The translations under genes were made by a program, and so were the position numbers. Below are positions 10,665-63,230 of a stretch of DNA of 64,000 bases, in pieces. Each line of letters starts with the position of its first letter. The first letter of the stretch is position 1. The DNA is from an uncultured Thermomicrobiales bacterium (GTDB taxonomy: Bacteria; Chloroflexota; Chloroflexia; Thermomicrobiales; UBA6265). The notes beneath the pieces were generated by a model. It did no database searches and was not told the DNA's origin. It worked only from the letters and a program-made list of their open reading frames with translations. The DNA is taken from NCBI GenBank assembly GCA_902806325.1, contig CADCWE010000201.1:1030-65029 (forward strand), given 5' to 3'.

Positions 10665-10821
10665 GGTCGCGACGATTCGCGCCCGCCATGCACCAAGCGT
10701 TGGCTCCAGCGCCGTTCGTTCTCGGCCCGGAACGCCGTCGGCGGCGAAGGTCCGCGCGTCGTGACGCCGATGAGAAGCCCTCGATGGCCGCCAGTCGCCT
10801 CGCCCCTCGGTTGCGCCCCGG

Positions 10822-31715: not shown

Positions 31716-33695
<1,980 letters not shown>

Positions 33696-33914
33696 GCGGC
33701 GGCTCCTCCACGACGGGCGACGGCGGGCGGGGTCGCCGAGACTGGCGCAGGATAGCCGAGGACGCAACGCCGCGTACCGAATCGAGTTCCGGACGGCTCC
33801 CCGATCCGATCGACGGCGCAGAACCGCCGGTCGGCGGGGCAGCGCCGCTTTCCCGCCCCCCCGTCTCGTGGTCTCAACGGCGGCGACGACCGAGGACCGA
33901 TGGAATGGGGGAAC

Positions 33915-34244
33915 ATGGCAGGCACGAAACCGGTGCCGAAAACACACCGGGTTCTCCGAGCGCTGGAGCGAGCAGGGTTTCGGCGCGAGCCCCAAGCGGG
34001 GAGCCACTTCAAGCTCCGCCGCGCCGGCCGCATTGCCATCGTGCCCGATCACGGCGGCAAGGACATGCCAACCGGCACGCTTCGCAGTATCCTCAATCAA
34101 GCGGGACCGACCGCCGCCGATTCCCGAAACCCGTTGGGAGCTGGAAGTGGAGCACGCGTCGAAGCGAGCCAGCGAGGCAATCGGGCCGTACTCGTCCGGC
34201 GCGGACGAGGCGAGGCCAGCGTCGACGCCGCGAAGATCGCCTGA
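33915..34244 (+). CDS. hicA: HicA-family toxin (orphan)
   Basis: [51 protein letters not shown] is the HicA (YcfA) pattern. The recognisable domain ends near 34140 and the ORF then runs on to 34244. An alternative ATG lies at 33900. Confidence 0.65.
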
Positions 34245-34269
34245 GCATTCGTTGAGGAGCGGTGATTCA

Positions 34270-36507
34270 TTGGCTATCGCCCCGCCACCCGCCGCCGCAG
34301 CCGCCGCCGATGCCCTCGTGGACCATCCCCACGCCGGCCACGGCCAGGTGCCGCGCCCGTTCGGGGAGCGCTACGACCGCGCGTTGGCGAACCCCCGGCT
34401 GGCCCGGAATCTGACCACCTTCCAACGGGCCTGGCGCGGGGCGCGGGATGGGGTGGTCGCGGAGGTCGATTTCCCGGCACTTCGCGCCGCCCTAAAGGAA
34501 GCCAAAACCGCCGTCACCGACGACCTGGACGGATACTTGGACCGGTTCCAGGCCGAGGCCGAGCGGGCCGGGGCGACGGTCCACCACGCCGCCGACGCGG
34601 AGGCGGCGAACCGGATCGTGCGGGAGCTGGCGGAGCGCCACGGCGTCCGGGTGGTGGCGAAGTCGAAGTCCATGGTCACCGAGGAGATCGATCTCAACCA
34701 CGTCTTCGCCGACGCGGGGATCGAGGTGGTCGAGACCGACCTCGGGGAGTGGATCGTCCAGCTCCGGGCGGAACGGCCGAGCCACATGGTGATGCCCGCC
34801 GTCCACCTGGCGCGCCAAGACGTGGGCGAGATCTTTTCCCAGGCGTTGGGGCGGGAGGTCAGTCGGGACGACATCGGGGAGCAGGTGCGGGTCGCGCGGG
34901 ACGAGCTGCGGAAGGTGTTTTTCGCCGCCGGGATGGGAATCACCGGCGCCAACGCCCTGATCGCCGAGGGCGGCACGGTGATGATGTGCACCAACGAGGG
35001 CAACGGACGCCTCTGCTCCTCGTTGCCGCGGGTCCACGTCGTGATGGCCGGGATCGAAAAACTCGTTCCCACCTTCGCCGACGCGATGGTCCAGCTCCGC
35101 CTCCTCGCCCGCTCCGGCACCGCCCAGCGGATCACGTCCTACACCACCTTCATCACCGGCCCGACGCCGGGGCACGATCTGCACGTCGTCCTGGTCGACA
35201 ACGGGCGCCGGGCGATGCACGCGACGCCGGAGTTTCGCGAGGCGCTGCACTGCATCCGCTGCGCCGCCTGTGCCAACGTCTGCCCGCCCTACCGCGAGGT
35301 CGGCGGCCACGTCTTCGGCCACATCTACACCGGCGCCATCGGCCTGGTGGTGACGCCGTTCCACCACGGCTTGGAGGCCGGGGCAAAACCCCAGAGCCTT
35401 TGCCTCTCCTGCAACGCCTGCGAGACGGTCTGCCCGGTCGGCATCCCGCTGCCCCGCCAGATCCTCGACGTGCGGCGGATGGTCGTCGAGGCCAAGGGGC
35501 TGCCGCGGGTCAAACGCGCCGTCCTCGGCGCCTACGCCCGGCCGCGCGTCGCCGGAGGGCTGTTCCGGATCGGCCGTCGCGCCCAACTGCCCTTGACGCG
35601 CGGCACGCGGTTCGTCCGCACCCGGGCCGTGCCGCCGTTGCGGGCGCAAACCCGCTGGCGTTCCCTGCCCGCCATCGCCCGCCGCCCACTGCGGGACCGG
35701 TTGGAAGCGGGGACCGTGCTCGCCGCGTTCCCGCCGGTGGTCCCGAACGGCGCCGCCGGTACGACGGTCGCCCTTTTTCCCGGCTGCATGACGGACCGGC
35801 TCTATCCGGAGCAAGGCGAGGCGGTGGTCGCGGTGCTGCGCGGCCTGGGGGCGCGGGTCGTCCTGCCGGCCGGGCTGCACTGCTGCGGTCTCCCGGCCAA
35901 CAACTCCGGCGATGCCCCGCACGCCCGCCGGATGGCCCGCCAGACCATCTGCGCTCTGGAAGCCGTCCGCTCCGATTATGTCGTGTCCGGCAGCGCCAGT
36001 TGCGTCGCCACCCTGACCCAGGATTACGCCCACCTGTTTCGGGACGATCCGGCCTGGCTCGCCCGCGCCGAACGCCTCGCGGCGCGTGTTCTCGACTTCA
36101 CCTCGTTCCTCGACCGCGTCGCCCACCTTCCGGCCGGCAGCCTGGCCGGTCCCGGTTCGCCGGTCCTGACCTACCACGACTCCTGCCAGGGTCTGAACGC
36201 CCTCGGCCTGAAGGACGAACCGCGCCGCCTCCTGCGCGATGTCCTCGGCTGCGACCTCCGCGAACTCCCCGAAAACACCCTCTGCTGCGGTTTCGGCGGC
36301 TCGTTCTCCTTCGAGTACCCGGCGGTCGCCGAGCGCCTGATGAACCGCAAACTCGACCACGCCGAATCCACCGGCGCCCCCCTCCTCGTCTCCGACAACC
36401 AAGGCTGCCTGATGCACCTCCGAGGCGGCTGCGACGCCGCCGGTCGGCCGCTGCGGGTGGCGCACCTGGCGGAGGTGGTGGCGGAGCGGATGCGCGCGCT
36501 GGGGTGA
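34270..36507 (+). CDS. Fused LutB-like (LUD domain + 2x4Fe-4S) / LutA-like (CCG-domain Fe-S oxidoreductase) protein
   Basis: N-terminal half: [50 protein letters not shown]-terminal half: two cysteine-rich CCG repeats ([13 protein letters not shown]; [14 protein letters not shown]). The start is uncertain: TTG at 34270 or GTG at 34318. Confidence 0.85.
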
Positions 36508-36509
36508 GG

Positions 36510-36540
36510 CCGTGCCGAGACGATCGGCACGGTCGTCTTA
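36510..36540 (+). terminator. Stem-loop directly after the lutBA-like stop
   Basis: CCGTGCCGA-gacga-TCGGCACGG followed by tcgtctt. The T-tract is weak. Confidence 0.4.
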
Positions 36541-36560
36541 CGATCATGGCTCGCGGGGGT

Positions 36561-36919
36561 CCGGGGTTGACGGCCCGGTCTGAACTCACGAAGTCCCTCC
36601 GGGACTGAACCCGGCCACCATTGGCGGTCGAACGCACCGGGCGACTGCACGACAATTGACGGTCGAGGACGTTATCGACTGTTTGGGACGGAACCGGTCC
36701 AGCCGGTCTTGAGCCAGCATTCTCCGACTGGCGCGCGGGTGCCCTCTGGGCGATTGAGCCCCGCATCGGAACGGCGTGCGGAATCTCCCACGATTCCTCA
36801 ACCTCCAACGGGCGCGGGCCTCCTTGGCTCCTACGGCGCTCTCCGGAGACCCCGCGAGCCTCCGTCCGTGCGTAGTCCCGGAGGGACTTTGCAGGTTCAG
36901 ACCGGGCCTTCGGCCCCGG
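36561..36919. repeat. About 360-bp element closed by a 35-46 bp imperfect inverted repeat (MITE-like or structured RNA)
   Basis: 36572-36606 ggcccggtctgaacTCACGaagtccctccgggact pairs with 36874-36908 agtcccggagggacttTGCAGgttcagaccgggcc (30 of 35 positions). The pairing extends through ccgggg/ccccgg in the flanks. Each arm also contains the mini-palindrome AGTCCC...GGGACT. Confidence 0.6.
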
Positions 36920-37019
36920 TCGTTCGGCGCGACGGCCGGACGGAGAACGGCGTTCCTGAGGGCGTCTAAGACCCGCAACACGGATATGGAACTCGCTCGG
37001 CGGGCGGACACGGGTGCCC

Positions 37020-37047
37020 TTGACAAGCCCAAATTGATACGTATCAT
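37020..37047 (+). promoter_or_regulatory. Sigma-70-type promoter candidate for the LacI-family gene/operon
   Basis: TTGACA (37020-37025), a 16-nt spacer, then TATCAT (37042-37047). GGAGGT SD at 37068 and ATG at 37078. Confidence 0.5.
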
Positions 37048-37077
37048 GCGGCCGTCGACCGGTCTGCGGAGGTATGG

Positions 37078-38106
37078 ATGGACGACGCGCCCGCTCGCCC
37101 CAAGAAGCGACCGACGCAGCTCGACGTGGCGCGGCTGGCCGCGGTCTCGCAGCCGGTCGTCTCCTACGTCCTCAATCGCGACGCGATCGCTCCGGTGGCG
37201 CCGGAGACCCGGCGGCGGGTGATCGCCGCGATCGAGCAGCTCGGCTACGTGCCGGACCAGGCGGCTCGCACGCTCCGCACCCGAAAAACCTTCACCATCG
37301 CCGGCATCATCCCCGACATCACCAACCCCTTCTACCCCGCCTTCGAGCGCGGCGTCCAGGACGTGGCGTCGAGCCACGGCTACGACCTGATCGTCTACAA
37401 CACCGACGGCGACGCGGAAAAGGAAGCCCGCTTCCAGCGCGCGGTCCAGGGTCGGGTCGATGGGGTAATCGGGGTCTTTTTCCACCTGACCGCGACCGAA
37501 CTGCGCCCGCTCTTGGAGCGACGCGTCGCGGTCGTCCGGCTCGAGGCGGCCCCCCAAGAGATCGGCCCCCTGCCGCTCGACAACCTCTACGTCGACAACG
37601 TCGCCGCGGCCCGCGAGGCCGTCGCCTTCCTGATCGGGCGCGGCCACCGGCGGATCGCGATGATCGCCGGGCGTGGTGGACCTCGCCAGCCGAGGGTCCG
37701 CGGCTATCGCGACGCGTTGGCGGCGCACGGCATCGGGTTCGACCCGCGGCTGCTGCGCGAGACGGAGTTCGTCGAGGGCGGCGGCTACGAAGCGATGCGC
37801 GAACTCCTCAGCGATCATTCCCGCCCCTCGGCGGTCTTCGCGGCCAACGATCTGCTGGCGATGGGGGCGCTCGTCGCGCTGCGCGAAGCGGGGCTGCGGG
37901 TCCCGGCCGACGTCGCCGTCGTCGGGTTCGACGACATCCCGGCCGCCCGCCTGGTCAGCCCGTCGCTGACGACGGTCGCCCAATTCCCTCAACAACTCGG
38001 TCGGCGCGCCGCCGAACTGCTCTTCTCCCGTCTCGATGGCACGGCCCCCGAGGGCGGGCGTTGCGAGGAGCGCCCCTACGAACTCGTCGTCCGCGAGTCG
38101 GCCTGA
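37078..38106 (+). CDS. LacI-family transcriptional regulator
   Basis: N-terminal [25 protein letters not shown], followed by a periplasmic-binding-fold effector domain ([20 protein letters not shown]). Confidence 0.92.
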
Positions 38107-38284
38107 GCGCGACGCGCGGAGACGATGCTCCTGCCGGCGCCACCCGGAAAGCGAGGTGCAACGGACCAGATCGCTCCGCTCGATCGCGCGTGACGACGAA
38201 CGTCATCGCGCTGCGTCACCCGGCGTCGCGCGCCGGGTCGCCCCGCGACGGCGTGGGTGGAACACCAAGGAGGCGAACGAGGTG

Positions 38285-39637
38285 ATGGCGAACCGCTCGA
38301 GGTCCCAACGGCTGACGATCGTTCTCGCGCTGGCGCTGCTGGTGCCGATGGTCGCGGTCGGGCGCGGCTCGGCGCCGACCGAGGCCCAGGACAAGGCGAC
38401 GATCAGCCTCTGGCTCGATTCCACCAGCGGCTCGGAGACCGCCGAATGCCGGATCGCGGCGGCGGTCGATCCGTTCAACGAACAAAGCGACACGGTCGTC
38501 GTCGAGCCGCGCCTGCAGCCGAACCGCTGGCAGGCGACCCAGACCGCGCTCGCCGGCGGCGAAGGGCCGGACGTGGTCTACACCCCCGGACCGGCGTTCG
38601 CGGTCCAGGTGACCGAGGCCGGCCAATTGCTGCCGCTCGACGACTACGCCGCCCAGTACGGCTGGAACGAGCGATTCGCCCCCTGGGCGATGGACCTGGG
38701 CAAGGTCGACGGCACTCTCTACAGCATCCCGAACCAGGTCGAGACGCTGGCCCTCTTCTACAACAAGACGCTGTTCGAGGAGAACGGCTGGGAGCCGCCG
38801 ACGACCATCGACGAGCTGACGGCCCTGGCCGAGGAGATCGCCGCGGCCGACATCATCCCGTTCGCCCATTCCAATCAGGAGTTCCGCGACGCCAACGAGT
38901 GGTTCGTCGGCGAGTATCTCAACCACGTCGCCGGACCGGACAAGGTCTACGAGGCCCTGACCGGCGCGGCGAAATGGACCGACCCCGAGTTCGTCGACGC
39001 GATCACCAAGCTCAACGAGGCCCAACAGAACGACTGGTTCATGGGCGGGGTCGATCGCTACTACACGACGACCTTCGCCGACGCCAACGCCGCCCTGGCC
39101 GCCGGCGAGGCGGCGATGAAGATCGAGGGCTCGTGGACCGTCGCCGACCTCAACACCTTCTTCGGCGAGGAAGGCAGCGAGTGGGGCTGGGTGCCGATGC
39201 CGTCGACCACCGGCGATGCGATCTACGACCTGGGCATCGGGTCGACGGTCTCGATCAACAAGAACGCCGAGAACCCCGACGCCGCGGCCGAGTTCATCGA
39301 TTACCTGTTCACCTCGGAGACCCAAGCCCGGCTCGTCGTCGAATGCGGCGACTCGCCGGCCTCGGTGCCCCTGGAAGAAAACGCCCTGGAAGGCGTCGAT
39401 CCGCAGTACGCCGAGATCCTGGTCGCCCAGAACGAAGCCTCGGCGGCCGGCAACTACGGCTACACGACCTGGACCTTTTTCCCGGCGGCGACCCGCACCT
39501 ACTTCTTCGAGGAGATCGAGAAGGTTTGGAGCGGCGACCTAACGGTCGAGGAGTATCTCCAGGGGGTGCAGGAAACCTTCGACCAGGAGGTGGCGGAAGG
39601 CGTCGTGCCCCCGATCCCGGATCGGTCGGTGACCTAA
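38285..39637 (+). CDS. Carbohydrate-type ABC transporter substrate-binding protein (family 1)
   Basis: AAGGAGG SD. Signal peptide RLTIVLALALLVPMVAVG. Family-1 SBP pattern (ISLWLDS.., DVVYTP, LYSIPNQVETLALFYNK, IEGSW). Confidence 0.9.
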   Translation: MANRSRSQRLTIVLALALLVPMVAVGRGSAPTEAQDKATISLWLDSTSGSETAECRIAAAVDPFNEQSDTVVVEPRLQPNRWQATQTALAGGEGPDVVYTPGPAFAVQVTEAGQLLPLDDYAAQYGWNERFAPWAMDLGKVDGTLYSIPNQVETLALFYNKTLFEENGWEPPTTIDELTALAEEIAAADIIPFAHSNQEFRDANEWFVGEYLNHVAGPDKVYEALTGAAKWTDPEFVDAITKLNEAQQNDWFMGGVDRYYTTTFADANAALAAGEAAMKIEGSWTVADLNTFFGEEGSEWGWVPMPSTTGDAIYDLGIGSTVSINKNAENPDAAAEFIDYLFTSETQARLVVECGDSPASVPLEENALEGVDPQYAEILVAQNEASAAGNYGYTTWTFFPAATRTYFFEEIEKVWSGDLTVEEYLQGVQETFDQEVAEGVVPPIPDRSVT

Positions 39638-39774
39638 CCGAACGCGGCCGGTTGGTTCGTGGGTCGAGGGCTCACGGGTCGTCCGCTCGCCGGGGCACGG
39701 GATGCGCGCCGGTGCTCCGCGAGGCACCGCATGAACGGGCGTTCGGCGATCCGTCGGCCACCATCCCAGCCCGC

Positions 39775-39880
39775 GTCATGCTGAGCGAAGCGAAGAATCT
39801 CCTGCCAGAGCAGCGTTTTCCCTTGGGAGATGACGATGATACCGCCGCGGCGGGAGATTCTTCGCTTCGCTCAGCATGAC
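39775..39880. repeat. Palindromic repeat element, family 1, copy B (best copy)
   Basis: Perfect 28-bp inverted repeat: gtcatgctgagcgaagcgaagaatctcc (39775-39802) and ggagattcttcgcttcgctcagcatgac (39853-39880), with a 50-nt centre. Confidence 0.85.
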
Positions 39881-39972
39881 CCCTCCGCAAGGGGGCGTCT
39901 CCGGACGCCCCCACTCCATCGCCGTTCTCGGCCGACGTGGCGTCGTCCAACCGTTCGCGGGAGGGGAACGAG

Positions 39973-40908
39973 GTGAGCGAAACCGCGATCCAGGTCCGCC
40001 CGGGTCTAGAGGTCCGCCGGCGGCGGTGGAACCGGGCCTCGTATCGCCGGAAGGTCATCCCCTGGTTGTTCGTGCTGCCGGTGTTGCTGATCAACCTGCT
40101 GGTCGTGCTCGGCCCGACCCTGGCGGCGGTCTACTACTCGATGACCGATTGGAGCGGCATCGGCGCGGCCGACTTCGTCGGCTTGGCCAACTACCGCCAG
40201 CTCTTCTTCGAGGACGATTCGTTCAAGACCGCGTTCGTCCACAACCTGATGTGGATGGCGATGTTCCTGACGGTGCCGATCGCGATGGGGTTGCTCGGGG
40301 CCAGCCTGCTGGCGCCGATCAAGCGCGGCGCGCTCTTTTTCCGGATGGCGCTCTTCATCCCCTACGTCTTGCCGAGCGTGGTCGTGGCCCACCTCTGGAG
40401 CTCGTTGATCCACCCGGATCGCGGCGTCGTCGGCTGGCTCAACGAGCGCGGCGTGTCGGGGATGGACGTCGCGTTCCTGGGGCGCGAATCGACGGTGCTG
40501 CCGACCATCGCCTTCATCGACAACTGGCGCTGGTGGGGGTTCCTGATGGTGTTGTTCCTGGCGGGGATGCAAAACATCCCGCCGGACCTCTACGAGGCGG
40601 CCCGCCTCGACGGCGCCAACCGCTGGCAGGAGTTCCGCGACGTGACCCTGCCGGGGATCCGGCCGATCCTCGTCTTCATGATCCTGATGACCGGGATCTG
40701 GTCGTTCCTGACCTTCGACCTGATCTGGATCATCACCCAGGGCGGCCCGGCCGGCGCCTCGGAGGTCCTCTCCGTGCTCGTCTTCAAGAACGCCTTCCAG
40801 AACTTCGAGGCCGGGTACGCCGCCGCGCTCGGGATCACGATGAGCTTGTTTGTCGGGTTCATCCTCTCGATCTTCGTCGTGCTGCGCCGGAGGGGGTGGG
40901 AGATATGA
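39973..40908 (+). CDS. Carbohydrate ABC transporter permease (MalF/UgpA type)
   Basis: Motifs: RRKVIPWLFVLPVLLINLLVVLGP and the EAA-type loop YEAARLDGANRWQEFRDVTLPG. I prefer the GTG at 39973 (GGGAGG upstream); the track start is GTG at 39937. Confidence 0.9.
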   Translation: MSETAIQVRPGLEVRRRRWNRASYRRKVIPWLFVLPVLLINLLVVLGPTLAAVYYSMTDWSGIGAADFVGLANYRQLFFEDDSFKTAFVHNLMWMAMFLTVPIAMGLLGASLLAPIKRGALFFRMALFIPYVLPSVVVAHLWSSLIHPDRGVVGWLNERGVSGMDVAFLGRESTVLPTIAFIDNWRWWGFLMVLFLAGMQNIPPDLYEAARLDGANRWQEFRDVTLPGIRPILVFMILMTGIWSFLTFDLIWIITQGGPAGASEVLSVLVFKNAFQNFEAGYAAALGITMSLFVGFILSIFVVLRRRGWEI

Positions 40909-41759
40909 ACCGGTCGCTCGGCACCACGACCGCCAAGGGGCGCCAGATCAGCCACGTTCCAAACTACGTCATCCTCACGGTGCTGCTCGTCTTCTCGCTC
41001 GGCCCGTTGCTGGTGATGGCCTTCAACTCCCTGAAGAGCCGGACCGACGTCGCCGACAACCCGCTCGGCCTGCCCCGGAACTTCGTCTGGTCCAACTACC
41101 GCGAGGCGTGGGACGTCGGCAACTTCTCGACCACGATGGTCAACAGCGGCATCCTCGTCGCCGCGACGGTGATCGGGGTCCTCCTGCTGGGGGGGATGGC
41201 GGCCTACAGCCTGGCCAAGCTCGATCTCCCCGGCGCGGGGGCGCTGATGCTGTTCCTGCTGGTGGTCTCCAGCCTGCCGATCCACCTGTTCCTGGTGCCG
41301 CTGTTCGTCCTCTGGCGGGAGCTGGGGCTGCTCAACACGGTCTTCGGTCTGGTCCTGATCTACATCGCCCTGAACGCCCCGCTCGCCATCTTCCTGCTCC
41401 GGTCCTACATGATCCAACTCCCGCGCGACTTCGAGGACGCGGCGCGGGTCGACGGGGCCGGCGAGTGGCAGATCTTCTCCCGGATCGTGGTCCCGCTCTC
41501 CTGGCCAGGCTTTCTCACGGTCGGCCTCGTCGTGGCGCTGGCGGTCTGGAACGAGTTCTTGCTCGCGACGGTGTTCTTGCAGGACGAAAGCAAGTTCACG
41601 GTGGTCACCAGCTACCAGAACTTCGCCACCCGGTTCAGCCGCGATTGGAGCCTGACCAGCGCGGCGGCGGTGATCATGATCGTGCCGATCGTGGCCATCT
41701 TCCTCACCTTCCAGCGCCGCTTCATCGAGGGCATGACCCAAGGGGGGACGAAGGGGTAG
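40905..41759 (+). CDS. Carbohydrate ABC transporter permease (MalG/UgpE type)
   Basis: ATG at 40905 overlaps the upstream stop (ATGA). Motif: FEDAARVDGAGEWQIFSRIVVPLS. Confidence 0.92.
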   Translation: MNRSLGTTTAKGRQISHVPNYVILTVLLVFSLGPLLVMAFNSLKSRTDVADNPLGLPRNFVWSNYREAWDVGNFSTTMVNSGILVAATVIGVLLLGGMAAYSLAKLDLPGAGALMLFLLVVSSLPIHLFLVPLFVLWRELGLLNTVFGLVLIYIALNAPLAIFLLRSYMIQLPRDFEDAARVDGAGEWQIFSRIVVPLSWPGFLTVGLVVALAVWNEFLLATVFLQDESKFTVVTSYQNFATRFSRDWSLTSAAAVIMIVPIVAIFLTFQRRFIEGMTQGGTKG

Positions 41760-41818
41760 GGGGCGCCCGTGGCCCTCCGTAGGGGCGCTGCTTGCTGCGC
41801 CCGTGGCCCGAAGGCCAC
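41757..41818. repeat. GGGGCGC-hairpin repeat, family 2 (tandem copy plus GTGGCC hairpin)
   Basis: gtagggggcgcccgtggcc, then gtaGGGGCGCtgcttgctGCGCCCgtggcc, then GTGGCC-cgaa-GGCCAC. The cluster begins at the stop codon of the permease gene. Confidence 0.6.
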
Positions 41819-41966
41819 AACGGGGGAACCAACGAACGACGACGGTCGGTCTCCGGCCGACGGGGGCGCGGCAAGCGGCGCCCCGACGGCGTGGAGATCC
41901 GGCACATGCTCCGTGGCTGCCCACGAGCCGCGACCAATGGCCGGAACGACGAGAAGTGGAGCGTTG

Positions 41967-43109
41967 ATGGATCGGAACCCGTTGGAACGCAAGGTCCGCG
42001 GCGTCCTCTACGGGGCCGCGGTCGGGGACGCGCTGGGGTCGCCGGCGGAGGGCAAGGAGCCGCCGGACATCCGCGCCCGGTACGGCGAGATCACCGATTT
42101 CGTCGAACCGTGGAACGGGCCGTCGGCGATCGGAAAGGGGGACGGCCGGTACTCCGACGATACCCACATGACGACCATCCTGAGCCGGATCTACCTCGAC
42201 GCGGACGACCACCTGGACGTGTTCCGCTTCGCCGCCGCCGTCGTCCCCCGGATCGCCGACCAGCCGATTTGGGTTCCCGAACACGGGCGGGAGATGCCGC
42301 TGATCGAGCGGCTCTTCTACCCCGAAAAATGGCTGCTGATGCGGCTGCGGTTGGCGAACGCCGACCCGCGCTTGGGCGGGATCGGCAACATGGTCAACTG
42401 CGGCGCCGCGATGTACGCCGCCCCGGTCGGGATCGTCAACGCCGGCGATCCCGGCGCGGCCTACCGCGAGGCGATCGAGATCTTCGCCGCCCACCAGTGG
42501 AGCTACGGGCTCGAAGCGGCCGGCGTCGTGGCGGCCTGCGTGGCCGGCGCGTTCACGCCGGGCACCACGGTCGACGCGATCGTCGCCACCGCGCTCGGAC
42601 TGTCCCAGGAGGGCACCCGGTCGGCAATCGCGGCGGTGGTCGAGCGCGCGCGGCGGTTCGACGACTGGCGCGCCGCGCTCGGGCCGCTGCGCGACGCGGT
42701 TCGCCCGTTCGACGGCGCCGCCTAGCAGATCCGCAACCGGGGCAACGGCACCGACGACTGGACGCCCAGCCGGGTCCGCGCGATCGAAGAGTTGCCGATC
42801 GCCCTCGGGTTGCTGATCGTCACCGGCGGCGACTACGAGGCCAGCGTCCTGGCCGCCGCCAACTACGGCCGCGACAACGACTCCATCGCCGGCATGGCGG
42901 GCGCGATCGCCGGCGCCCTCCACGGCGACGGGGCGATCCGTCCCGCCTGGATCGAGCGGATCAACGCCGCCAACCGGGTCGACTTCGACCCGCTGGCGCG
43001 CGACCTCGCGGCGCTGGCGGACCGGCTGCACCGGCGCCGGTTGACCGCGGACGAAGCACGCCACCGCCTGTTCACCGAACTTGGTTCTCAATCAACACGG
43101 CCGAGCTAG
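41967..43109 (+). pseudogene. ADP-ribosylglycohydrolase-family protein interrupted by a single in-frame TAG (42723-42725)
   Basis: N-terminal part: GAAVGDALGSPAEG and YSDDTHMT. After the TAG, in the same frame: ELPIALGLLIVTGGDYEASVLAAANYGRDNDSIAGMAGAIAGALHG (the C-terminal metal-site motif). Track ORFs 41769-42725 and 42792-43109 are in one frame (66 nt apart). Confidence 0.7.
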
Positions 43110-43145
43110 CGCCCATCGCCGGGATTCGCCAACGAGGAGGAGTTC

Positions 43146-45245
43146 TTGGCCCTGCCCAACGACTACGCGGAGCGCGTCTACGCCGGGGTGCTCGGCAAGC
43201 TGATCGGCGTCTACCTCGGCCGCCCGGTCGAAAGCTGGAAATACGAGCGGATCACGACCGAGATCGGCGAGATCGACCGCTACATGCCCGAGATCAAGGG
43301 CGGCATCCTGGTGGTCACCGACGACGACATCTCGGGCACCTTCACCTTTCTCCGCGCCTTGCCGGACAACGGCAACCGGCGCGACATCTCGGCCCAGGAC
43401 ATCGGTCACACCTGGCTCAACTACATCGTCGAAGGGCGGACGATCCTCTGGTGGGGCGGGCTGGGCAATTCGACGGAGCACACGGCCTACCTCCGTCTCA
43501 AGGACGGGATCCCCGCCCCCCGCAGCGGCTCGATTGCGCTCAACAGCAAAACCGTCGCCGAGCAGATCGGAGCCCAGATCTTCGTCGACGGATGGGCGAT
43601 GGTCGCGCCGGGCGATCCGGAGCTGGCCGCCGACCTGGCCCGCCGGGCGGGGTCGGTCAGCCACGACGGGGAGGCCATCTACGGCGCCCAGGTCGTCGCC
43701 GCGATGGAGGCCCAGGCCTTCGTCGAATCCGACACCAATCGGCTGATCGACACCGGGGTCTCGTTCATCCCGCCGGACTCGACGATCGCCCGCCTGATCC
43801 ACGACGTCCGGGAGTGGCACGCGGCGGAGCGGGACTGGCGGGCGACGCGGGACCTGATCGCCGCCAACTACGGCTACGACAAGTACCGCGGCAACTGCCA
43901 CATGGTCCCGAACCACGCCCTGATCATCCACGCCCTGCTCCACGGCGAGGACGACTTTCGGCGGTCGCTGACGATCGTCAACACCTGCGGCTGGGACACC
44001 GACTGCAACTCCGGCAACCTCGGTTGCCTGCTCGGGATCAAGAACGGACTGGCGGCGATCGACGCCTCGCCCTACGACTGGCGGGGTCCCGTCGCCGACC
44101 GGCTCTACCTCGCCACGGCCGACGGCGGGCGGGCGATCACCGACGCCGCGACCGAATCCTTCCACGTCGTCAACATCGGCCGCGCGCTGGCCGGGGAGGC
44201 GCCGCTCCACCCCAAGCAGGGCGCCCGGTTCCACTTCGAACTCCCCGGCTCCGTTCAGGGGTTCGGAGCCGAGGGCGACGGCGTCTCGGTCGAGAACGTG
44301 GTCGGGCACAGCGCGCGTGGCCAGCGTAGCCTGGCCGTCCGCGCCCGCGCCGGCGGCACGGCGCGGATTGCCACCCCGACGTTCATCCCACCCGAGGCGA
44401 TCGCGATGCGGGGCTACGTTCTCCTCGCCTCGCCGACGCTCTACGCCGGGCAAACGGTGCGGGCCGGCGTCGCCGCCGACGAATCCAACCGGCAAACCAC
44501 CACCTGCCGCCTCTTCCTCCGCGCCTACACGGGCGACGATACGTTGACCCTCGTCCAGGGGTCCGAGGCCGTTCTGGAGCCGGGCACGACCCAGGAGCTG
44601 GTCTGGCGGATCCCCGAGACGGACGGCCAACCGATCGCCCAGGTCGGCATCGAGGCGCGCCACGGCGACGGCGGATCCGGCGACGGCACCGTCTACCTCG
44701 ACTACCTCGACTGGGACGGCGCCCCGGAGGCGACGCTCGGGCGACCGGCGGCCCGCGGCACGATGTGGCGCCGCGCCTGGATGGACGGCGTCGACGATTT
44801 TCGCGACCGGTGGCCGGAACCGTACCGGATCGTCCAGAACCACGGCACCGGCCTGATCAGCCAGGGCACCGCGGACTGGACCGACTACCGGGCGGAGGCC
44901 GATGTCAAGGTCTACCTCGCCCGCTCGGGCGGCCTCGCGGTGCGCACCGGCGGGATGCGCCGCTACTACGCCCTGACGCTCGATGACGACGGGCAGGCGC
45001 GGCTGATCAAGATGCGCGACGGCCAGACGATCCTGGCCGAAGCGGCGTTCCCCTGGGACTTCGACCGCTCCTACGCCCTCGCCTTGGAGGCCGACGGCGC
45101 CCGGCTTCGCGGCTGGATCGACGGCGCGCTGCTGTTCGACGTCGTCGACGAAACCGACCCGTTGACCGGCGGCGGCGTCGGGTTGGTCTGCACCGAGGGG
45201 TGCCTGGGCAGCGAGGCGGTCCGGGTGCGGCCGGCGGAGGCGTGA
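43146..45245 (+). CDS. ADP-ribosylglycohydrolase-fold domain fused to C-terminal beta-sandwich (LamG/concanavalin-like) domains
   Basis: GAGGAGGAG SD plus TTG at 43146. ARH motifs: VVTDDDISGT and NTCGWDTDCNSGNLGCLLG. The first motif is atypical (GKLIGVYLGRPVE). The C-terminal roughly 350 aa are beta-rich, ending WTDYRAEADV..YYALTLDDDGQARL..GGVGLV. Confidence 0.85.
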   Translation: MALPNDYAERVYAGVLGKLIGVYLGRPVESWKYERITTEIGEIDRYMPEIKGGILVVTDDDISGTFTFLRALPDNGNRRDISAQDIGHTWLNYIVEGRTILWWGGLGNSTEHTAYLRLKDGIPAPRSGSIALNSKTVAEQIGAQIFVDGWAMVAPGDPELAADLARRAGSVSHDGEAIYGAQVVAAMEAQAFVESDTNRLIDTGVSFIPPDSTIARLIHDVREWHAAERDWRATRDLIAANYGYDKYRGNCHMVPNHALIIHALLHGEDDFRRSLTIVNTCGWDTDCNSGNLGCLLGIKNGLAAIDASPYDWRGPVADRLYLATADGGRAITDAATESFHVVNIGRALAGEAPLHPKQGARFHFELPGSVQGFGAEGDGVSVENVVGHSARGQRSLAVRARAGGTARIATPTFIPPEAIAMRGYVLLASPTLYAGQTVRAGVAADESNRQTTTCRLFLRAYTGDDTLTLVQGSEAVLEPGTTQELVWRIPETDGQPIAQVGIEARHGDGGSGDGTVYLDYLDWDGAPEATLGRPAARGTMWRRAWMDGVDDFRDRWPEPYRIVQNHGTGLISQGTADWTDYRAEADVKVYLARSGGLAVRTGGMRRYYALTLDDDGQARLIKMRDGQTILAEAAFPWDFDRSYALALEADGARLRGWIDGALLFDVVDETDPLTGGGVGLVCTEGCLGSEAVRVRPAEA

Positions 45246-45276
45246 CGGGAGGACGCGCATCGGCACCACGGCCCCC

Positions 45277-45375
45277 CGTCGTTCTGAGCCGGCGAAGAAC
45301 CTCTCGCCCACGGGCGACGGCGTCCCAGGAACCGACGCTGCGGCGGCAGGAGATGCTTCGCTGCGCTCCGAACGA
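45277..45375. repeat. Palindromic repeat element, family 1, copy C
   Basis: gtcgttctgagccggcgaagaacctctc (45277-45304) and ggagatgcttcgctgcgctccgaacgat (45348-45375) form an imperfect inverted repeat. The centre shares tcctgccgccgcag with copies A and D. Confidence 0.75.
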
Positions 45376-45468
45376 TCGCCTGGCGGGCAGATCCGACCCA
45401 ACCGAATGCGCCAGGGCGTGACGCCGGCAGCGGGTCGGGGGCCGTCCGGGCCAACGACAAGGAGCCTC

Positions 45469-46653
45469 ATGGCCGGACCACTGGATGGGATTCGGGTGCT
45501 CGATCTGTCGCGGCTCGTCGCTGGCGGCGCGCTCGGGATGTGCCTGGCGGACTTCGGCGCCGATGTCGTCAAGGTCGAGCAGCCGGGCCGGGGGGATCCG
45601 CTGCGGACGTGGAGCACCGACGGGCAGTCGTTCTGGTGGCGGGTCTACGGCCGCAACAAACGGTCGGTGACGCTCAACCTGGACTCGATCGAGGGGCGGG
45701 AGCTGCTGCAACAACTGGTGCCCCGCTTCGACATCGTCGTCGAGTCGTTCGTGCCGGGCAAGCTCGAACGCTGGGGCATCGGCCCGGACACGCTCCACGC
45801 CTGGCACCCCGGTCTGGTCCTGGTGCGGATCTCCGCCTGGGGGCAGGACGGGCCGGACCGCGCCCGGCCCGGTTTCGGCACGCTCGTCGAGGCGGCGAGC
45901 GGGTTGGCGGCGATGACCGGGGACCCGGACGGCCCGCCCGTCCTGCCCCCGTTCCCCCTCGCCGACATGTACGCCGCCCTCTACGCCGCGAACGCGGCCG
46001 TGATGGCGCTCTACCATCGCGACGTCCACGGCGCGCCCGGCCAGACCATCGACGTCGCGCTCTTCGAGGCGGTCTTCTCCGCCCTCGGGCCGCTCGCCGC
46101 CGAGCACGCGGCGTTGGGTCAAGTACGATCCCGCAGCAACGGCCGGTCGCGCAACACCGCCCCGCGCGGCGCGTACCGCACGGCCGACGGCGGCTACCTC
46201 GCCGTCAGCGCCTCGACTCCGGACACCGCCGAGCGGTTCCTGGCCGCCTACGGCTTGGGCGACCTGCTGCGCGACCCCCGTTTCGCCACCAACGAAGCCC
46301 GAGTCAAAAACGTCGAGGCGCTCGACGCCCTGGTGACCGGGGCGATCGCGCAGCACACACTGGCCGAGAACCGGCGGATCGTCGAGCGGCACGGCCTGAC
46401 CGCCGCGCCGATCCAAACGATCGCCGACATCGTCGCGGACCCGCATTGGCAGGCCCGCGGGTTGACGGTCGACGTCGCCGACGACCAGGGCGCGGTGCGG
46501 ATGCACACCGTCGTGCCGCGGCTCTCCGCCACCCCTGGCGAGATCCGATGGCCGGGACCGCGCCTCGGCGCGCATAATCGGGAGGTCTACGGGGAGGAAC
46601 TTGGGATCACGGCCGAGGAGTTGGACCGTCTCGAGCGGGACGGTGTCATCTAG
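45469..46653 (+). CDS. Family III CoA-transferase (CaiB/BaiF type)
   Basis: AAGGAG SD. Motifs: LDGIRVLDLSRLVAGGALGMCLADFGADVVKVE and RNKRSVTLNL. Full length, about 394 aa. Confidence 0.92.
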   Translation: MAGPLDGIRVLDLSRLVAGGALGMCLADFGADVVKVEQPGRGDPLRTWSTDGQSFWWRVYGRNKRSVTLNLDSIEGRELLQQLVPRFDIVVESFVPGKLERWGIGPDTLHAWHPGLVLVRISAWGQDGPDRARPGFGTLVEAASGLAAMTGDPDGPPVLPPFPLADMYAALYAANAAVMALYHRDVHGAPGQTIDVALFEAVFSALGPLAAEHAALGQVRSRSNGRSRNTAPRGAYRTADGGYLAVSASTPDTAERFLAAYGLGDLLRDPRFATNEARVKNVEALDALVTGAIAQHTLAENRRIVERHGLTAAPIQTIADIVADPHWQARGLTVDVADDQGAVRMHTVVPRLSATPGEIRWPGPRLGAHNREVYGEELGITAEELDRLERDGVI

Positions 46654-46696
46654 CGGTATGCCGAGAATTTTATGCGGGCGCGGCGTCCACCCGCCC

Positions 46697-46745
46697 GTCG
46701 TTCTGGGCGTGCGAAGCATCTCCTGCCGCCGCAGCCGTCTCCCGC
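46697..46745. repeat. Palindromic repeat element, family 1, copy D (half element)
   Basis: gtcgttctgggcgtgcgaagcatctcctgccgccgcagc matches the left arm plus centre of copies A and C. No convincing right arm. Confidence 0.6.
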
Positions 46746-46795
46746 CAGAGGCATCCGACCTTGACGAGCGGCCCAGGTGGCCACGCCGGTGGAGG

Positions 46796-47590
46796 ATGGG
46801 ACAACCGATGGAACCATGGCGGACCGGGGTGACCGACAGCGGGCCGGATTCGATCCGGATCCGCGGTTACGATGTCACCGACCTGATGGGGCGGTGCGGC
46901 TTCGCCGATCTGCTCTTCCTGCTCCACCGGTCGCGGCTGCCGTCGGCCGGGGAACGGCGGCTGGTGGATGCGATGCTGATTGCGAGTGCGGACCACGGAC
47001 CTGGCGCGCCATCGGCCCTCGCGGCGCGGGTGGTCGCCTCGGGCAACCGTCGCGCGCCGGAGGCCGCGGTCGCCGCCGGCATCCTCGCCATCGGGGACTA
47101 CCACGGCGGGGCCGGCGAGCAGTGCTTCGCGTTGCTGGCGGAGGGGATCGCCTGGGCACGGCGGGAAGAGCGGTCCCTGGCCGAGGCCGCGGGGTGGCTG
47201 GTCGAGCGCGCCGTGTCGCGGGCGACGCGGCTGCCCGGCTTCGGCCACCGCACCCACGCCGAAGACCCCCGCACCGGCGTGCTCTTCGCCCTCGCCCGCG
47301 AGCATGGCGTGGCGGGCGATGGGATGACCCTGATCGAAGCGATCCGCACGGAAGCGAGCCGCCGGATCCGTCCGCTCCCGATCAACGTCGATGGCGCGCT
47401 GGGCGCGGTGCTGCTCGATCTCGGTTTTGCCCCGGTCGCGGCGCGCTTCTTCTTCCTCGTCGGGCGCGTCGCCGGGCTGACCGCCCACGTCGCCGAGGAG
47501 ATGGACCGGGAGCGACCGATGCGCATCTCGATCCCCGTGGACTACGATGGTCCGGCCGCGCGATCGCTCCCGCCCGACGACAAGGACTGA
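46796..47590 (+). CDS. Short citrate-synthase-fold protein (citryl-CoA lyase-like)
   Basis: About 264 aa. IRIRGYDVTDLMG.., HGPGAPS, RLPGFGHRTHAEDPR (citrate synthase catalytic His region), INVDGALG. The large N-terminal citrate synthase domain is absent. An alternative ATG lies at 46808. Confidence 0.8.
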   Translation: MGQPMEPWRTGVTDSGPDSIRIRGYDVTDLMGRCGFADLLFLLHRSRLPSAGERRLVDAMLIASADHGPGAPSALAARVVASGNRRAPEAAVAAGILAIGDYHGGAGEQCFALLAEGIAWARREERSLAEAAGWLVERAVSRATRLPGFGHRTHAEDPRTGVLFALAREHGVAGDGMTLIEAIRTEASRRIRPLPINVDGALGAVLLDLGFAPVAARFFFLVGRVAGLTAHVAEEMDRERPMRISIPVDYDGPAARSLPPDDKD

Positions 47591-47830
47591 CCGTATCGTT
47601 CGGCTGCCAACCAAGACCCACCGGAACGCGGTCGTCACCGCGAGCGGTCGGATCCACGCCCCGGTCCACCGCCAACCGCCCGCCTTAAATGTCCCGCCCG
47701 TTGGAACCGTCCGATCGCATTGGCCGTCTCCGTCCGCTTGGCAGGCCACCGGCGCTGCCGTACCATGCCGATCGTTGCCCCGGGTCGACGAACCGACCCG
47801 GCGCTCGGCCCGGCCGCGAAAGGACCCGAC

Positions 47831-48730
47831 GTGTCCCTCTGCCTGTATCGCGACCGCGACCGCGACCGCGACCCCGCGGACGCCGCCCCGGACGCCGCCC
47901 CGCGCCTCGGCCTGATCGCGGATAGCCGCGTCCACGACGTGGCCGCGGTCGGTGGACCGGCCACGATGGCCGAGGCGCTGGCGATGCCGCTAGGCGACCT
48001 GCGCTCCCGCCTGGGCGCCGTCCTGGACGCGGCCGGGGACACGGTGGCCCTGGCCGACGTCCGGTTGCTGGCGCCGGTGGATCGTCAAGAGGTCTGGGCG
48101 GCGGGCGTCACCTATCTCCGCTCCCGCGACGCCCGGATGGAAGAATCGACCGAGAAGAGCGTCTACGACCGGGTCTACGACGCCAAGCGGCCGGAGCTGT
48201 TCCTGAAAGCCACCCCGCACCGCGTGTCCGGACCCGGCGAGCCGGTCGCGATCCGCGCCGATTCGACCTGGGACGTGCCGGAACCGGAGCTGGCGCTGGT
48301 CCTCAACGCCGACGGGGAGACTATCGGCTACACCGTCGGCAACGACGTGTCGTCGCGCTCGATCGAGGGCGAGAACCCGCTCTACCTGCCCCAGGCCAAG
48401 GTTTACGACGCCTGCGCCGCGCTCGGCCCGACCGTCGCCCTGGCTTGGGATCTGTCCGACGTTTCCGACCTCGCGATCCGTCTTTCCATCCGCCGCGCCG
48501 GCGCGATCCACTTCGAAGGCGAGTCCTCAACGTCCCAGATCCACCGCCCGTTCGCGGACCTGGTCGGCTACCTGCGCCGCCACAACCGGTTCCCGCACGG
48601 CGTCGTCCTGATGACCGGCACCGGCATCATCCCGCCGCCGGAGTTCACCCTCGAAGACGGCGACGAGGTCCGGATCGCGATCGACGGCATCGGGGAGCTG
48701 GTCAACCCGGTGGTGCGGCCGACCGGATAG
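47831..48730 (+). CDS. Fumarylacetoacetate hydrolase (FAH)-family enzyme, KdaD-like (2-keto-3-deoxy-pentonate dehydratase type)
   Basis: GTG at 47831. EVWAAGVTYLRSRD..VYDRVYDAKRPELFLKATPHRVSGPGEPVAIRADSTWDVPEPELALVLN..GNDVSSRSIEGENPLYLPQAKVY resembles archaeal KdaD as I recall it. The last 33 codons are duplicated at 49698-49805. Confidence 0.85.
   Translation: MSLCLYRDRDRDRDPADAAPDAAPRLGLIADSRVHDVAAVGGPATMAEALAMPLGDLRSRLGAVLDAAGDTVALADVRLLAPVDRQEVWAAGVTYLRSRDARMEESTEKSVYDRVYDAKRPELFLKATPHRVSGPGEPVAIRADSTWDVPEPELALVLNADGETIGYTVGNDVSSRSIEGENPLYLPQAKVYDACAALGPTVALAWDLSDVSDLAIRLSIRRAGAIHFEGESSTSQIHRPFADLVGYLRRHNRFPHGVVLMTGTGIIPPPEFTLEDGDEVRIAIDGIGELVNPVVRPTG
48623..48721 (+). repeat. Direct repeat, left copy (functional 3' end of the FAH-family CDS)
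   Basis: 99 nt, 97/99 identical to 49698-49796. Confidence 0.95.
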
Positions 48731-48742
48731 GGATCGACGGCT

Positions 48743-49661: not shown

Positions 49662-49697
49662 CGCCGGCAACCGGCAGTCGCCACCGCTCTCCCGCAC

Positions 49698-63179: not shown

Positions 63180-63230
63180 TTAGGTTATTGGCCGGAGGCG
63201 ATCTGGCGGGTCCAAGACCAAGGAGTGACG

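Follow-up and report, generated by a model that had tools for sequence, protein, structure and literature searches.

The window analysed here, a stretch of 64,000 nucleotides from an uncultured Thermomicrobiales bacterium, harbors what is probably an operon, controlled by a repressor, for the breakdown of an imported ribofuranosyl conjugate. Six open reading frames were assigned in one direction (+ strand) by GC3 frame analysis and Pfam, which include a LacI-family repressor, a solute-binding protein (SBP), two permeases and two proteins of the ADP-ribosylglycohydrolase (ARH) fold, ARH1 and ARH2, so the gene order of the earlier note (promoter, LacI, SBP, permease, permease, ARH, ARH fusion, on one strand) was borne out. 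Its reading of the locus, as a CUT1-type uptake system with ARH-fold catabolic hydrolases acting on a ribosyl or other glycosyl conjugate, is supported by the conservation of this neighbourhood across phyla.

Promoter, operator and transport genes

The sole strong sigma70-like promoter within 36500–49500 was located at 37020–37047 (+ strand; TTGACA-N16-TATCAT, 11/12 matches), with the -35 hexamer at 37020–37025 and the -10 hexamer at 37042–37047, and no terminator-like site was observed from this promoter through 48730, including between ARH2 and the genes downstream of it. The search for a LacI operator, proposed in the earlier note, yielded the candidate palindrome TTGATACGTATCAT at 37034–37047, which overlaps the -10 hexamer and contains a perfect 12-bp core, TGATACGTATCA, at 37035–37046. 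It occurs in one copy only in the window and may be a chance match, as at least one operator match (up to 2 mismatches) was found in 30 of 100 shuffled sequences. The LacI operator motif is conserved across phyla: at least 15 related loci, among them loci of Trueperaceae and Enterobacter, have 14-bp palindromes with a ATACGTAT core 5' of LacI.

The repressor (37078–38106, +; 342 aa) comprises the Pfam LacI HTH and Peripla_BP_3 domains, and its nearest profiles are RbsR and CcpA, with scores under the equivalog cut-offs. The family-1 extracellular SBP (38285–39637, +; 450 aa; SBP_bac_1 and SBP_bac_8) displays a signal peptide and lacks a lipobox Cys, as read directly from the sequence. It is followed by two BPD_transp_1 permeases, one MalF/UgpA-like (39937–40908, +; start possibly at 39973; the gene is also called in L001, a contig nearly identical to this one) and one MalG/UgpE-like (40905–41759, +), the start of the latter overlapping the stop of the former (ATGA). 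The overlapping or short junctions described in the earlier note were seen between the permeases, but the SBP-permease (~300–335 bp) and permease-ARH1 (~208 bp) junctions are long. The former gap contains an inverted repeat forming a long hairpin of ~110 bp (39775–39880, +; stem ~32 bp; dG -72.9 kcal/mol, z -8.7), for which Rfam gave one spurious sub-threshold match and nothing else; it might act in mRNA stability or differential expression.

Conservation of the operon and its linked enzymes

The ARH2 family encompasses at least 7,985 clusters, of which the best 120 span the full length with no less than 64% identity, and the fusion family exhibits 58–75% identity across phyla. At least 562 relatives were detected in the genome collection, in Chloroflexota, Armatimonadota, Deinococcota, Rubrobacter and Bacillota. 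The order [LacI]-SBP-permease-permease-[ARH of ~380 aa]-ARH of ~700 aa was observed in ~30 of 83 loci, and same-strand permeases lie within 8 kb of the ARH2 orthologue in 31 of 80 loci (18 of 38 with long flanks). About 40–47% of the ARH2 orthologues are located inside a LacI/ABC operon and about half have no adjoining transporter. This synteny spans at least six phyla with short or overlapping junctions, so the neighbourhood conservation that the earlier note proposed to check is present.

No conventional glycoside hydrolase family recurs among 102 other same-strand neighbours of the ARH2 orthologues, contrary to the possibility, raised in the earlier note, that homologous loci always include such enzymes. 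The commonest family among these neighbours is PfkB, with five members, and the neighbouring kinases of L035 and L039 exceed the TIGR02152 ribokinase cut-off. Ribokinase is the most frequent additional enzyme near ARH2 orthologues, adjoining them in 4 of 80 genome-scan loci, and its linkage to the ARH operon under the same operators is supported, as in L096, where a ribokinase-like gene, transcribed divergently and 52% identical to the ribokinase of L092, shares with the operon an intergenic region that has two operator copies. In Agrobacterium tumefaciens HAMBI 105 the order is LacI-permease-permease-SBP-ARH-ARH-UgpC-ribokinase, and Rhizobiaceae megaplasmids carry the same operon, ATPase included, followed by either a ribokinase or a CoA-transferase and a CitE-like lyase. 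The Ensifer and Sinorhizobium operons are 80–93% identical to that of Agrobacterium and run through overlapping start and stop codons into the CoA-transferase and CitE-like lyase genes.

In the stretch itself, no classical glycoside hydrolase, kinase or ABC ATPase was found, as the earlier note had stated, but its description of the ARH pair as the only enzymes was too strong, since three enzyme genes (45406–48730) come after ARH2 with no terminator-like site between, and in other loci such genes share an operon with ARH genes. These are a family III CoA-transferase (45406–46653, +; start possibly 45469), a citrate-synthase-family, citryl-CoA-lyase-like protein (46601–47590, +; start possibly 46808; NF004869, 250 bits, cut-off 212) and an FAH-family hydrolase/decarboxylase-like protein (47720–48730, +; start possibly 47831). 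The lyase-like gene pairs tightly with the CoA-transferase, which is 50% identical to the Ensifer enzyme whose gene overlaps the ARH operon, and both are probably accessory to the ARH pathway. In L102 and L108 the CoA-transferase/lyase module forms part of an ARH/ABC operon, and in L083 its place is taken by a citrate-synthase-family gene and a SucC-like ligase, the latter overlapping the stop codon of the ~700-aa ARH gene. The pair was also found without ARH genes, and a CoA-transferase adjoins the ARH2 orthologue in 1 of 80 genome-scan loci. Membership of the FAH-family gene is uncertain; in L086, a related contig, its counterpart has a different location. The tie between this module and the operon, drawn by comparative genomics, is absent from the earlier note.

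Like the citryl-CoA route (CoA-transferase or ligase with CCL or CitE), the window has a family III CoA-transferase and a citryl-CoA lyase above its NCBIfam cut-off, with CitE-like or SucC-like analogues at the same position in other ARH lineages; unlike in citryl-CoA citrate cleavage, these genes adjoin an operon for glycoside uptake.

The ARH proteins and alternative readings

ARH2 (43146–45245, +) is a 699-aa fusion with a TTG start and GAGGAGGAG just upstream. Its Pfam ADP_ribosyl_GH match (187.8 bits) spans aa 14–307 and precedes a C-terminal extension of ~390 aa, the ARH domain covering aa 1 to ~345, a first beta-sandwich ~370–525 and a second, CBM66-like one ~545–699; this C-terminal module is nearly confined to the ARH-beta-sandwich architecture. 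ARH2 adopts the ARH fold, with low model confidence over the active-site region, and E29, D59–61, D284, D286 and C287 are invariant among its homologues. The domain is highly divergent, and therefore neither phmmer nor the family profile matched it to solved ARH structures. Metal sites, whose loss had been named earlier as a possible refutation, are intact as motifs in the alignments of both ARH proteins.

The lectin-like domain noted earlier in ARH2 exists, and its last beta-sandwich resembles the fructan-binding CBM66 of Bacillus subtilis levanase in sequence (E 0.002–0.006) and fold (TM 0.79). This similarity points, if anywhere, to fructosides, and the locus could accordingly import a furanoside or oligosaccharide other than a riboside, such as fructo-oligosaccharides or levan fragments, with ARH2 as a novel furanosidase guided by the CBM66-like domain. 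Among solved structures the SBP is closest to 3VXB, NagB1 and 4G68 (E between about 1e-24 and 1e-20), which include the NagB1 binders of chitin oligosaccharides and proteins with generic sugar-binding names, the L024 neighbour is a fructokinase-like PfkB, and GH13-like genes lie inside the operon at L036 and L039, all of which agree with such a substrate. We nevertheless consider it unlikely, as the CBM66 similarity is marginal, neither GH32 nor a consistent fructokinase was found among the 102 neighbours, the recurring kinases are true ribokinases, and characterised ARH enzymes act on ribosyl bonds.

By analogy with two similar systems, the operon could instead scavenge N-ribosides that derive from nucleosides or NAD, such as nucleosides, nicotinamide riboside or fragments of ADP-ribose. 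The Bacteroidetes rus loci encode a transporter together with one or more ribokinases and, in many cases, a LacI regulator; some variants add ADP-ribosylglycohydrolases, proposed to release ribose from ribose-containing nutrients (Glowacki et al., bioRxiv 10.1101/574913). They share this nutrient-scavenging layout with the present operon type, but import through SusC/D and the RusT permease rather than a CUT1 ABC system, and their ARHs are uncharacterised, one among many variable accessory enzymes. The GgaR/YegW-repressed yegTUV of Escherichia coli, whose function is still unknown (PMC10819704), likewise unites a transporter, an ARH-family protein and a PfkB sugar kinase under its own repressor, but the transporter is of the MFS nucleoside type, the repressor belongs to the GntR family and YegU lacks the beta-sandwich extension; the ARH-fusion gene of Enterobacter had no homologue in E. 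coli genomes in a DNA search. Although the ribokinase linkage also fits N-ribosides, this substrate class is rather improbable here: CUT1 family-1 SBPs typically serve oligosaccharides and glycosides rather than nucleosides, genes for nucleobase salvage, Nudix enzymes or phosphorylases do not recur in the set of 102 neighbours, and the CoA-transferase/lyase linkage is left unexplained.

ARH1 (41967–43109, +) is a 380-codon ADP_ribosyl_GH gene with an in-frame TAG at 42723–42725 (codon 253), overlooked in the earlier note. The TAG splits the Pfam profile (positions 1–214 before, 226–285 after). ARH1 aligns with ARH3, Tri1 and DraG, metal ligands included, and in the ARH3 alignment its DxDS motif falls 3' of the TAG. 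If this were a true loss-of-function allele, the locus would no longer function as a unit and the pathway would be decaying or inactive in the present genome. The position of the TAG ahead of the DxDS motif, its use as the normal stop of ARH1 too, and the 252-aa truncated product annotated in the public record agree with decay, but we regard it as doubtful: contig L001 (99.76% identical) carries GAG (Glu) at this site and a complete 380-aa gene, the three SNPs 3' of the TAG relative to L001 are all synonymous, the remaining genes are all intact, ARH2 alone suffices in many related operons, and the TAG may be a sequencing or assembly error. A purely regulatory role of the pair as de-ADP-ribosylases of the DraG, ARH3 or Tri1 type, with the adjacent transporter metabolically meaningless, is very improbable even though both proteins belong to PF03747 and ARH1 is alignable down to the metal ligands, given the LacI/ABC synteny kept with tight junctions over at least six phyla, the co-operonic ribokinase and CoA-transferase, and no ADP-ribosyltransferase partner among the 102 neighbours.

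Proposed pathway

The ribofuranosyl-conjugate reading is preferred here. The window proteins share with the ARH/DraG/Tri1 family (PF03747; human ARH1, ARH3, DraG, Serratia Tri1, MJ1187) the Pfam family, the all-alpha fold and the Glu, (S/T)DD and DxD(T/S) metal-ligand motifs, and presumably the same binuclear-metal hydrolysis at the ribose anomeric carbon. They differ in being encoded in a LacI/ABC uptake operon, with a probable catabolic role in place of modification reversal and no ADP-ribosyltransferase partner, and ARH2 further differs in its two C-terminal beta-sandwiches, its invariant Cys at the metal-ligand Thr position of ARH3 and a sequence too diverged to match any solved ARH. The repressor-SBP-two-permease architecture with a cytoplasmic hydrolase gene at the 3' end is that of LacI-regulated CUT1 oligosaccharide operons (such as mal, msm or FOS loci, which carry a GH13, GH32 or GH36 enzyme), in which a CAZy glycoside hydrolase occupies the place of the one to three ARH-fold proteins of the ARH operons; in CUT1 operons the ATPase is often shared (MsiK-type).

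The LacI-family repressor would bind the palindrome on the -10 hexamer and be released by the substrate or its product. The SBP and two permeases would bring the compound in with a MalK/MsiK-type ATPase encoded elsewhere in the genome, and the cytoplasmic metal-dependent hydrolases ARH1 (broken in the present allele) and ARH2 would cut its ribosyl bonds. Freed ribose would enter metabolism through ribokinase, and the aglycone, here and in several other lineages, may be a citrate-like hydroxy-carboxylic acid that the CoA-transferase would activate and the citryl-CoA-lyase-type enzyme split; possible acids are citrate, homocitrate, malate, citramalate and those of the HMG type. A candidate for the imported compound is ribocitrin, the tri-riboside of homocitrate from Streptomyces. 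Points against the proposed pathway are the lack of a ribokinase and an ATPase in the window, the end of ARH1 ahead of its DxDS motif, the ARH2 orthologues without an adjoining transporter, the small share of genome-scan loci with an adjacent ribokinase or CoA-transferase, the CoA-transferase/lyase pairs without ARH genes, the divergence of the ARH2 domain with the low model confidence at its active site, and the CBM66 similarity.

The earlier note did not recognise the pathway as a described one, and the literature likewise gave no published characterisation of an ARH/ABC operon or a 'ribofuranosidase', which is why the operon matters: ARH-fold enzymes probably stand in for ordinary glycosidases in a conserved bacterial nutrient-uptake operon.

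Operon organisation, importer and regulation

Because the window is about 70% G+C, reading frames were chosen by third-position GC, and the genes were assigned with Pfam and NCBIfam. A sigma70-like promoter (TTGACA-N16-TATCAT, 37020-47), the sole strong site on the forward strand of the region scanned, is followed on that strand by a LacI-family gene (37078-38106), a family-1 extracellular solute-binding protein (SBP, 38285-39637), two BPD_transp_1 permeases (39937/39973-40908 and 40905-41759, joined by an ATGA overlap), the ADP_ribosyl_GH gene ARH1 (41967-43109) and ARH2, an ADP_ribosyl_GH protein of 699 aa that is extended at its C-terminus by ~390 aa (43146-45245, assigned by Pfam). Frame analysis and Pfam thus uphold the single-strand gene order of the earlier note, which had also described the junctions as overlapping or short; this holds for the permease pair, but the gaps between the SBP and the first permease (~335 bp) and between the second permease and ARH1 (~208 bp) are long. 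Its view that the ARH-fold proteins are the only enzymes did not stand, since a family III CoA-transferase (45406-46653), a predicted citrate-synthase-family citryl-CoA lyase (CCL) and an FAH-family protein, all recognised by Pfam and NCBIfam, come in this order after ARH2 on the same strand, and a sequence scan found neither a terminator-like site nor a second strong promoter before 47738. The absence of glycoside hydrolase, kinase and ATPase genes that it had remarked on was borne out by Pfam, NCBIfam and homology searches, which found no glycoside hydrolase, kinase or MalK-type ATPase either in the operon stretch or in the rest of the window.

The family-1 SBP and the two BPD_transp_1 permeases, found by Pfam and NCBIfam, are the set by which a sugar-type (CUT1) ABC importer is recognised. 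A cognate ATPase of the MalK/MsiK/UgpC type was not found in the window, where only 28-31% matches to unrelated ABC ATPases were obtained; alphaproteobacterial versions of the operon carry an ATPase gene of their own, and sharing of one ATPase between systems is common in the CUT1 importer family. A second MalF/MalG-like CUT1 permease pair, with 29% identity to the operon permeases, lies at 62445-63995 and reaches the window end.

The gap between the SBP and the first permease is unusually long compared with the ~80 bp at this position in related contigs, and it contains a 110-bp near-perfect hairpin (39775-39880; dG -72.9 kcal/mol, z -8.7). The ARH2/CoA-transferase gap holds a 34-nt partial copy of this hairpin (45335-45368), and an Anaerolineales contig (L014) matches it over 33 nt. 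The hairpin may be a MITE/REP-like element, or an mRNA stabiliser like the malE-malF REP of E. coli. An Rfam search returned no riboswitch, and the hairpin drew just one spurious miRNA-precursor match.

The LacI protein comprises an N-terminal HTH and a periplasmic-binding-protein-like effector domain (Pfam). A perfect palindrome with a central CG, TGATACGTATCA at 37035-46, overlaps the -10 hexamer and is a candidate LacI operator. It is single in the window when up to 2 mismatches are tolerated; at least one match was also obtained in 30 of 100 shuffles, so the single-copy count by itself leaves chance possible. In at least 15 related loci, including those of Trueperaceae and Enterobacter hormaechei, 14-bp palindromes with a ATACGTAT core precede the LacI gene by 20-130 bp, and Rhizobiaceae operons carry two sites of the candidate operator TGG(G/T)AACGTTCCCA; the candidate forms are TTGATACGTATCA for the Chloroflexota type and TGGGAACGTTCCCA for the Rhizobiaceae type. 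In R. leguminosarum the region that separates the LacI gene from a divergently oriented ribokinase-like gene holds two copies of the candidate operator; this ribokinase-like gene has 52% identity to the ribokinase of the related locus L092.

Two other features adjoin the operon. On its 5' side, at 31716-36507, a divergent alpha-amylase-family gene (reverse strand) and a LUD_dom/Fer4/CCG iron-sulfur protein (forward strand) are placed by the annotation of L001, a near-identical metagenome contig. On its 3' side, the end of the FAH-family gene (3') occurs twice, as a 107-bp direct repeat (48615-48721 and 49691-49796, 96% identical) that flanks a two-gene reverse-strand cassette (HTH_3 and DUF6932, 48743-49626), which looks like an inserted small toxin-antitoxin-like module.

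The two ADP-ribosylglycohydrolase-fold proteins

ARH1 is split in the window by an in-frame TAG at 42723-42725 (Glu253 to stop), with Pfam positions 1-214 matched before it and 226-285 after it; the two pieces score 106.4 and 56.5 bits against a PF03747 gathering cut-off of 26.2 bits. ARH1 aligns with mouse and human ARH3, Tri1, DraG and MJ1187, including the Glu, DD and DxD(S/T) metal ligands, its E28, D64/D65 and D303/D305/S306 corresponding to the ARH3 binuclear-metal ligands E41, D77/D78 and D314/D316/T317. D303, D305 and S306 fall 3' of the premature stop, through which the C-terminal DxDS metal motif is lost. The public record, 'uncultured Thermomicrobiales bacterium', gives a truncated product of 252 aa. 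The ENA metagenome contig L001, which matches over 21.8 kb at 99.76% identity, carries GAG at this codon and an intact gene of 380 aa; 3 further SNPs separate the two sequences 3' of the stop, all synonymous. With the DxDS motif removed, the allele in the window would be due to recent loss of function or to an assembly error. Recoding or readthrough of TAG was rejected, as the normal stop of ARH1 is also TAG and the near-identical contig simply carries GAG.

ARH2 matches PF03747 with 187.8 bits over profile positions 2-286 of 287 (cut-off 26.2 bits), and an identical protein (P0001) turned up in the homologue search. Phmmer and family-profile searches of ARH2 against the PDB matched no solved ARH structure, CBM66 being the sole match, and the active-site comparison was therefore built on motifs; by sequence, ARH2 is assigned to a distinct ARH subfamily. 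In the AlphaFold (AF2) model of ARH2 (mean pLDDT 73, with low confidence at residues 49-143), the all-alpha N-terminal domain resembles ARH3, MJ1187 and DraG (target-normalised TM 0.60-0.75), the tandem beta-sandwiches match the GALC lectin domain, and the last beta-sandwich resembles the CBM66 of B. subtilis levanase SacC (TM 0.79, 21% identity). Both this fold match and the CBM66 sequence match (E 0.002-0.006) are to be read as resemblance only. The C-terminal module is found almost solely in the ~700-aa architecture.

Residues E29, D59-D61, D284, D286 and C287 of ARH2 are invariant among 34 homologues, and E29 and the DxDC motif align to their ARH1 equivalents by hhalign at low probability. 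Missing metal sites, which the earlier note had named as counting against its reading, were not encountered, the sites appearing intact by motif. At codon 287 (~44004-44006, in GWDTDCNSG) an invariant Cys stands where ARH3 has the metal-coordinating Thr317 and ARH1 has Ser306, which may point to another metal preference or another chemistry. Neither ARH1 nor ARH2 has a signal peptide as read from the sequence, and both should be cytoplasmic for this reason.

Conservation of the neighbourhood and linked metabolic genes

At least 7,985 relatives of ARH2 were obtained at 90% clustering, the 120 best being full-length with identities of 64% or more, and a genome scan with one genome per species gave at least 562, in Chloroflexota, Armatimonadota, Abditibacteriota, Deinococcota, Actinomycetota (Rubrobacter) and Bacillota. 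Conservation of the neighbourhood, proposed earlier as a check, was observed after gene calling and clustering in 83 loci: the order [LacI]-SBP-permease-permease-[ARH ~380 aa]-ARH ~700 aa recurs in ~30 of them. By tblastn, same-strand permeases lie within 8 kb of ARH2 in 31/80 loci, and are present in 18 of the 38 loci having at least 6 kb of flank on each side. An ARH1-type gene stands immediately 5' of ARH2 in ~12 loci, and some operons, such as those of L083 (Anaerolineaceae) and L108, contain three ARH paralogues. Among 102 other same-strand neighbours PfkB was the commonest Pfam family (n = 5), and no glycoside hydrolase family recurred beyond 3 alpha-amylase-type matches, so the outcome that the earlier note had named as refuting its reading, conventional glycosidases in all homologous loci, was not observed.

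Culturable hosts of the operon were located by tblastn against plasmids. The operon of Agrobacterium tumefaciens HAMBI 105, on plasmid NZ_CP139999, reads LacI-perm-perm-SBP-ARH(401 aa)-ARH(699 aa)-UgpC-ribokinase, its two ARH genes spanning 102865-104070 and 104086-106185. In Ensifer sp. PDNC004 and Sinorhizobium sp. B11 this core is continued by genes for a CoA-transferase and a CitE-like CoA-ester lyase, and stop and start codons overlap at the junctions of this module; Phyllobacterium and Nitratireductor carry just the core. Between Agrobacterium and Ensifer the core proteins share 80-93% identity and should for that reason serve one substrate, yet the cores differ in their partner, a ribokinase in Agrobacterium and the CoA module in Ensifer. 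Ribokinases scoring beyond the TIGR02152 cut-off also adjoin ARH2 in loci of Limnochordia and Chloroflexia.

The Ensifer CoA-transferase has 50% identity to that of the window, a conservation equal to that of the ARH proteins, and the predicted lyase of the window scores 250.4 bits against NF004869, the subfamily model of citrate-synthase-family citryl-CoA lyases (cut-off 212). A metagenome scan with the CoA-transferase found the CoA-transferase/CCL pair to be tight, often standalone, and embedded within the ARH/ABC operons of the loci L102 and L108. The pair is not specific to ARH operons, a possibility rejected because most metagenomic relatives at 60-66% identity have no adjacent ARH genes. 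In the Anaerolineaceae locus L083, a SucC-like ligase overlapping the stop of the ~700-aa ARH gene and a citrate-synthase-family gene replace the CoA-transferase and lyase. That three non-orthologous solutions for forming and cleaving a CoA ester adjoin the same operon argues for a functional link between it and such processing of a citrate-like acid.

Two of the loci showed further peculiarities. L108 (metagenome contig JAABUS010002459.1, 902-14072) has its three short ARH paralogues, LacI and ABC genes on a single strand, together with genes for a Kelch/NanM-like beta-propeller (possibly a sugar mutarotase), an enolase-superfamily protein, DUF2071 and CoA-transferase/CCL. In L090 (CP103578.1, Enterobacter hormaechei pMB8072_1, 7966-12425) chiP and glnS flank a cluster of LacI, ARH fusion and SBP genes; the plasmid label of this record may be wrong, as it bears the chromosomal housekeeping genes seqA, pgm, fur, glnS and nagE. 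When E. coli genomes were searched at the DNA level with the ARH-fusion gene of Enterobacter, no homologue was returned.

A proposed route for ribosyl conjugates

The earlier note had suggested import and deglycosylation of a ribosyl- or other glycosyl-conjugated small molecule, which is supported in part and extended by the ribokinase and CoA-module links. In the route that we propose, with all catalytic steps inferred, the ABC system would import a ribofuranosyl conjugate, the ARH paralogues would split its ribosyl bonds in the cytoplasm, the released ribose would pass to ribokinase and, where present, the CoA-transferase and lyase would convert a hydroxy-tricarboxylate or -dicarboxylate aglycone to acetyl-CoA and a 2-oxo acid. 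More specifically, and with a likelihood that we place well below even, the operon might be a catabolic route for ribocitrin-type oligo-ribofuranosides of (homo)citrate from Streptomyces, with the ARH proteins as ribofuranosidases. To our knowledge, ribocitrin is the sole natural product combining ribose with a citrate-like acid, and ribofuranosidases are a glycosidase class without a CAZy family. Ribocitrin is a Streptomyces compound of unknown biosynthesis in which (S)-homocitric acid bears three ribosyl groups (a tririboside), and it was tentatively detected in several recent isolates (PMC12381216, PMC13136089). One to three ARH paralogues, each acting on one ribosyl bond, would fit ribocitrin because it has three such bonds; ribokinase would phosphorylate the ribose, the family III CoA-transferase would activate homocitrate, and the citrate-synthase-family or CitE-type lyase would yield acetyl-CoA and 2-oxoglutarate.

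The ARH proteins of the window belong to the same family (PF03747) as the regulatory erasers of the DraG/ARH3 type, but the system is of another kind; its logic is that of a classical LacI/CUT1 oligosaccharide operon in which ARH enzymes occupy the hydrolase slot. The locus also works like the Rus system of Bacteroidetes, which is recognised by a SusC/D pair, RusK ribokinases and a RusT permease, without being a member of it, as neither a SusC/D homologue nor a ribokinase was found in the window, the latter being restricted to loci related to its operon. Among precedents, the rus loci of Bacteroidetes and yegTUV of E. coli come nearest, both uncharacterised at the enzyme level, and a literature search found no characterised system matching the operon and no publication describing it.

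ARH-fold enzymes are known almost solely for erasing ADP-ribosylation; in the present case they are the conserved, often sole, putative hydrolases of a sugar-type uptake operon spread over hundreds of species in at least six phyla, among them culturable strains of Agrobacterium, Ensifer, Rhizobium and Enterobacter. Through the links to ribokinase and to a CoA-transferase/lyase module the substrate becomes open to direct testing, and cultured Rhizobiaceae make the operon itself testable. If the ARH proteins are ribofuranosidases, they would define a new glycosidase class and a route by which soil bacteria harvest ribose-containing metabolites, and many annotations that now say little would be accounted for; should the ribocitrin reading prove true, thousands of 'ADP-ribosylglycohydrolase family protein' annotations would gain a function, and the ARH fold would move from ADP-ribose signalling to bulk carbon catabolism.
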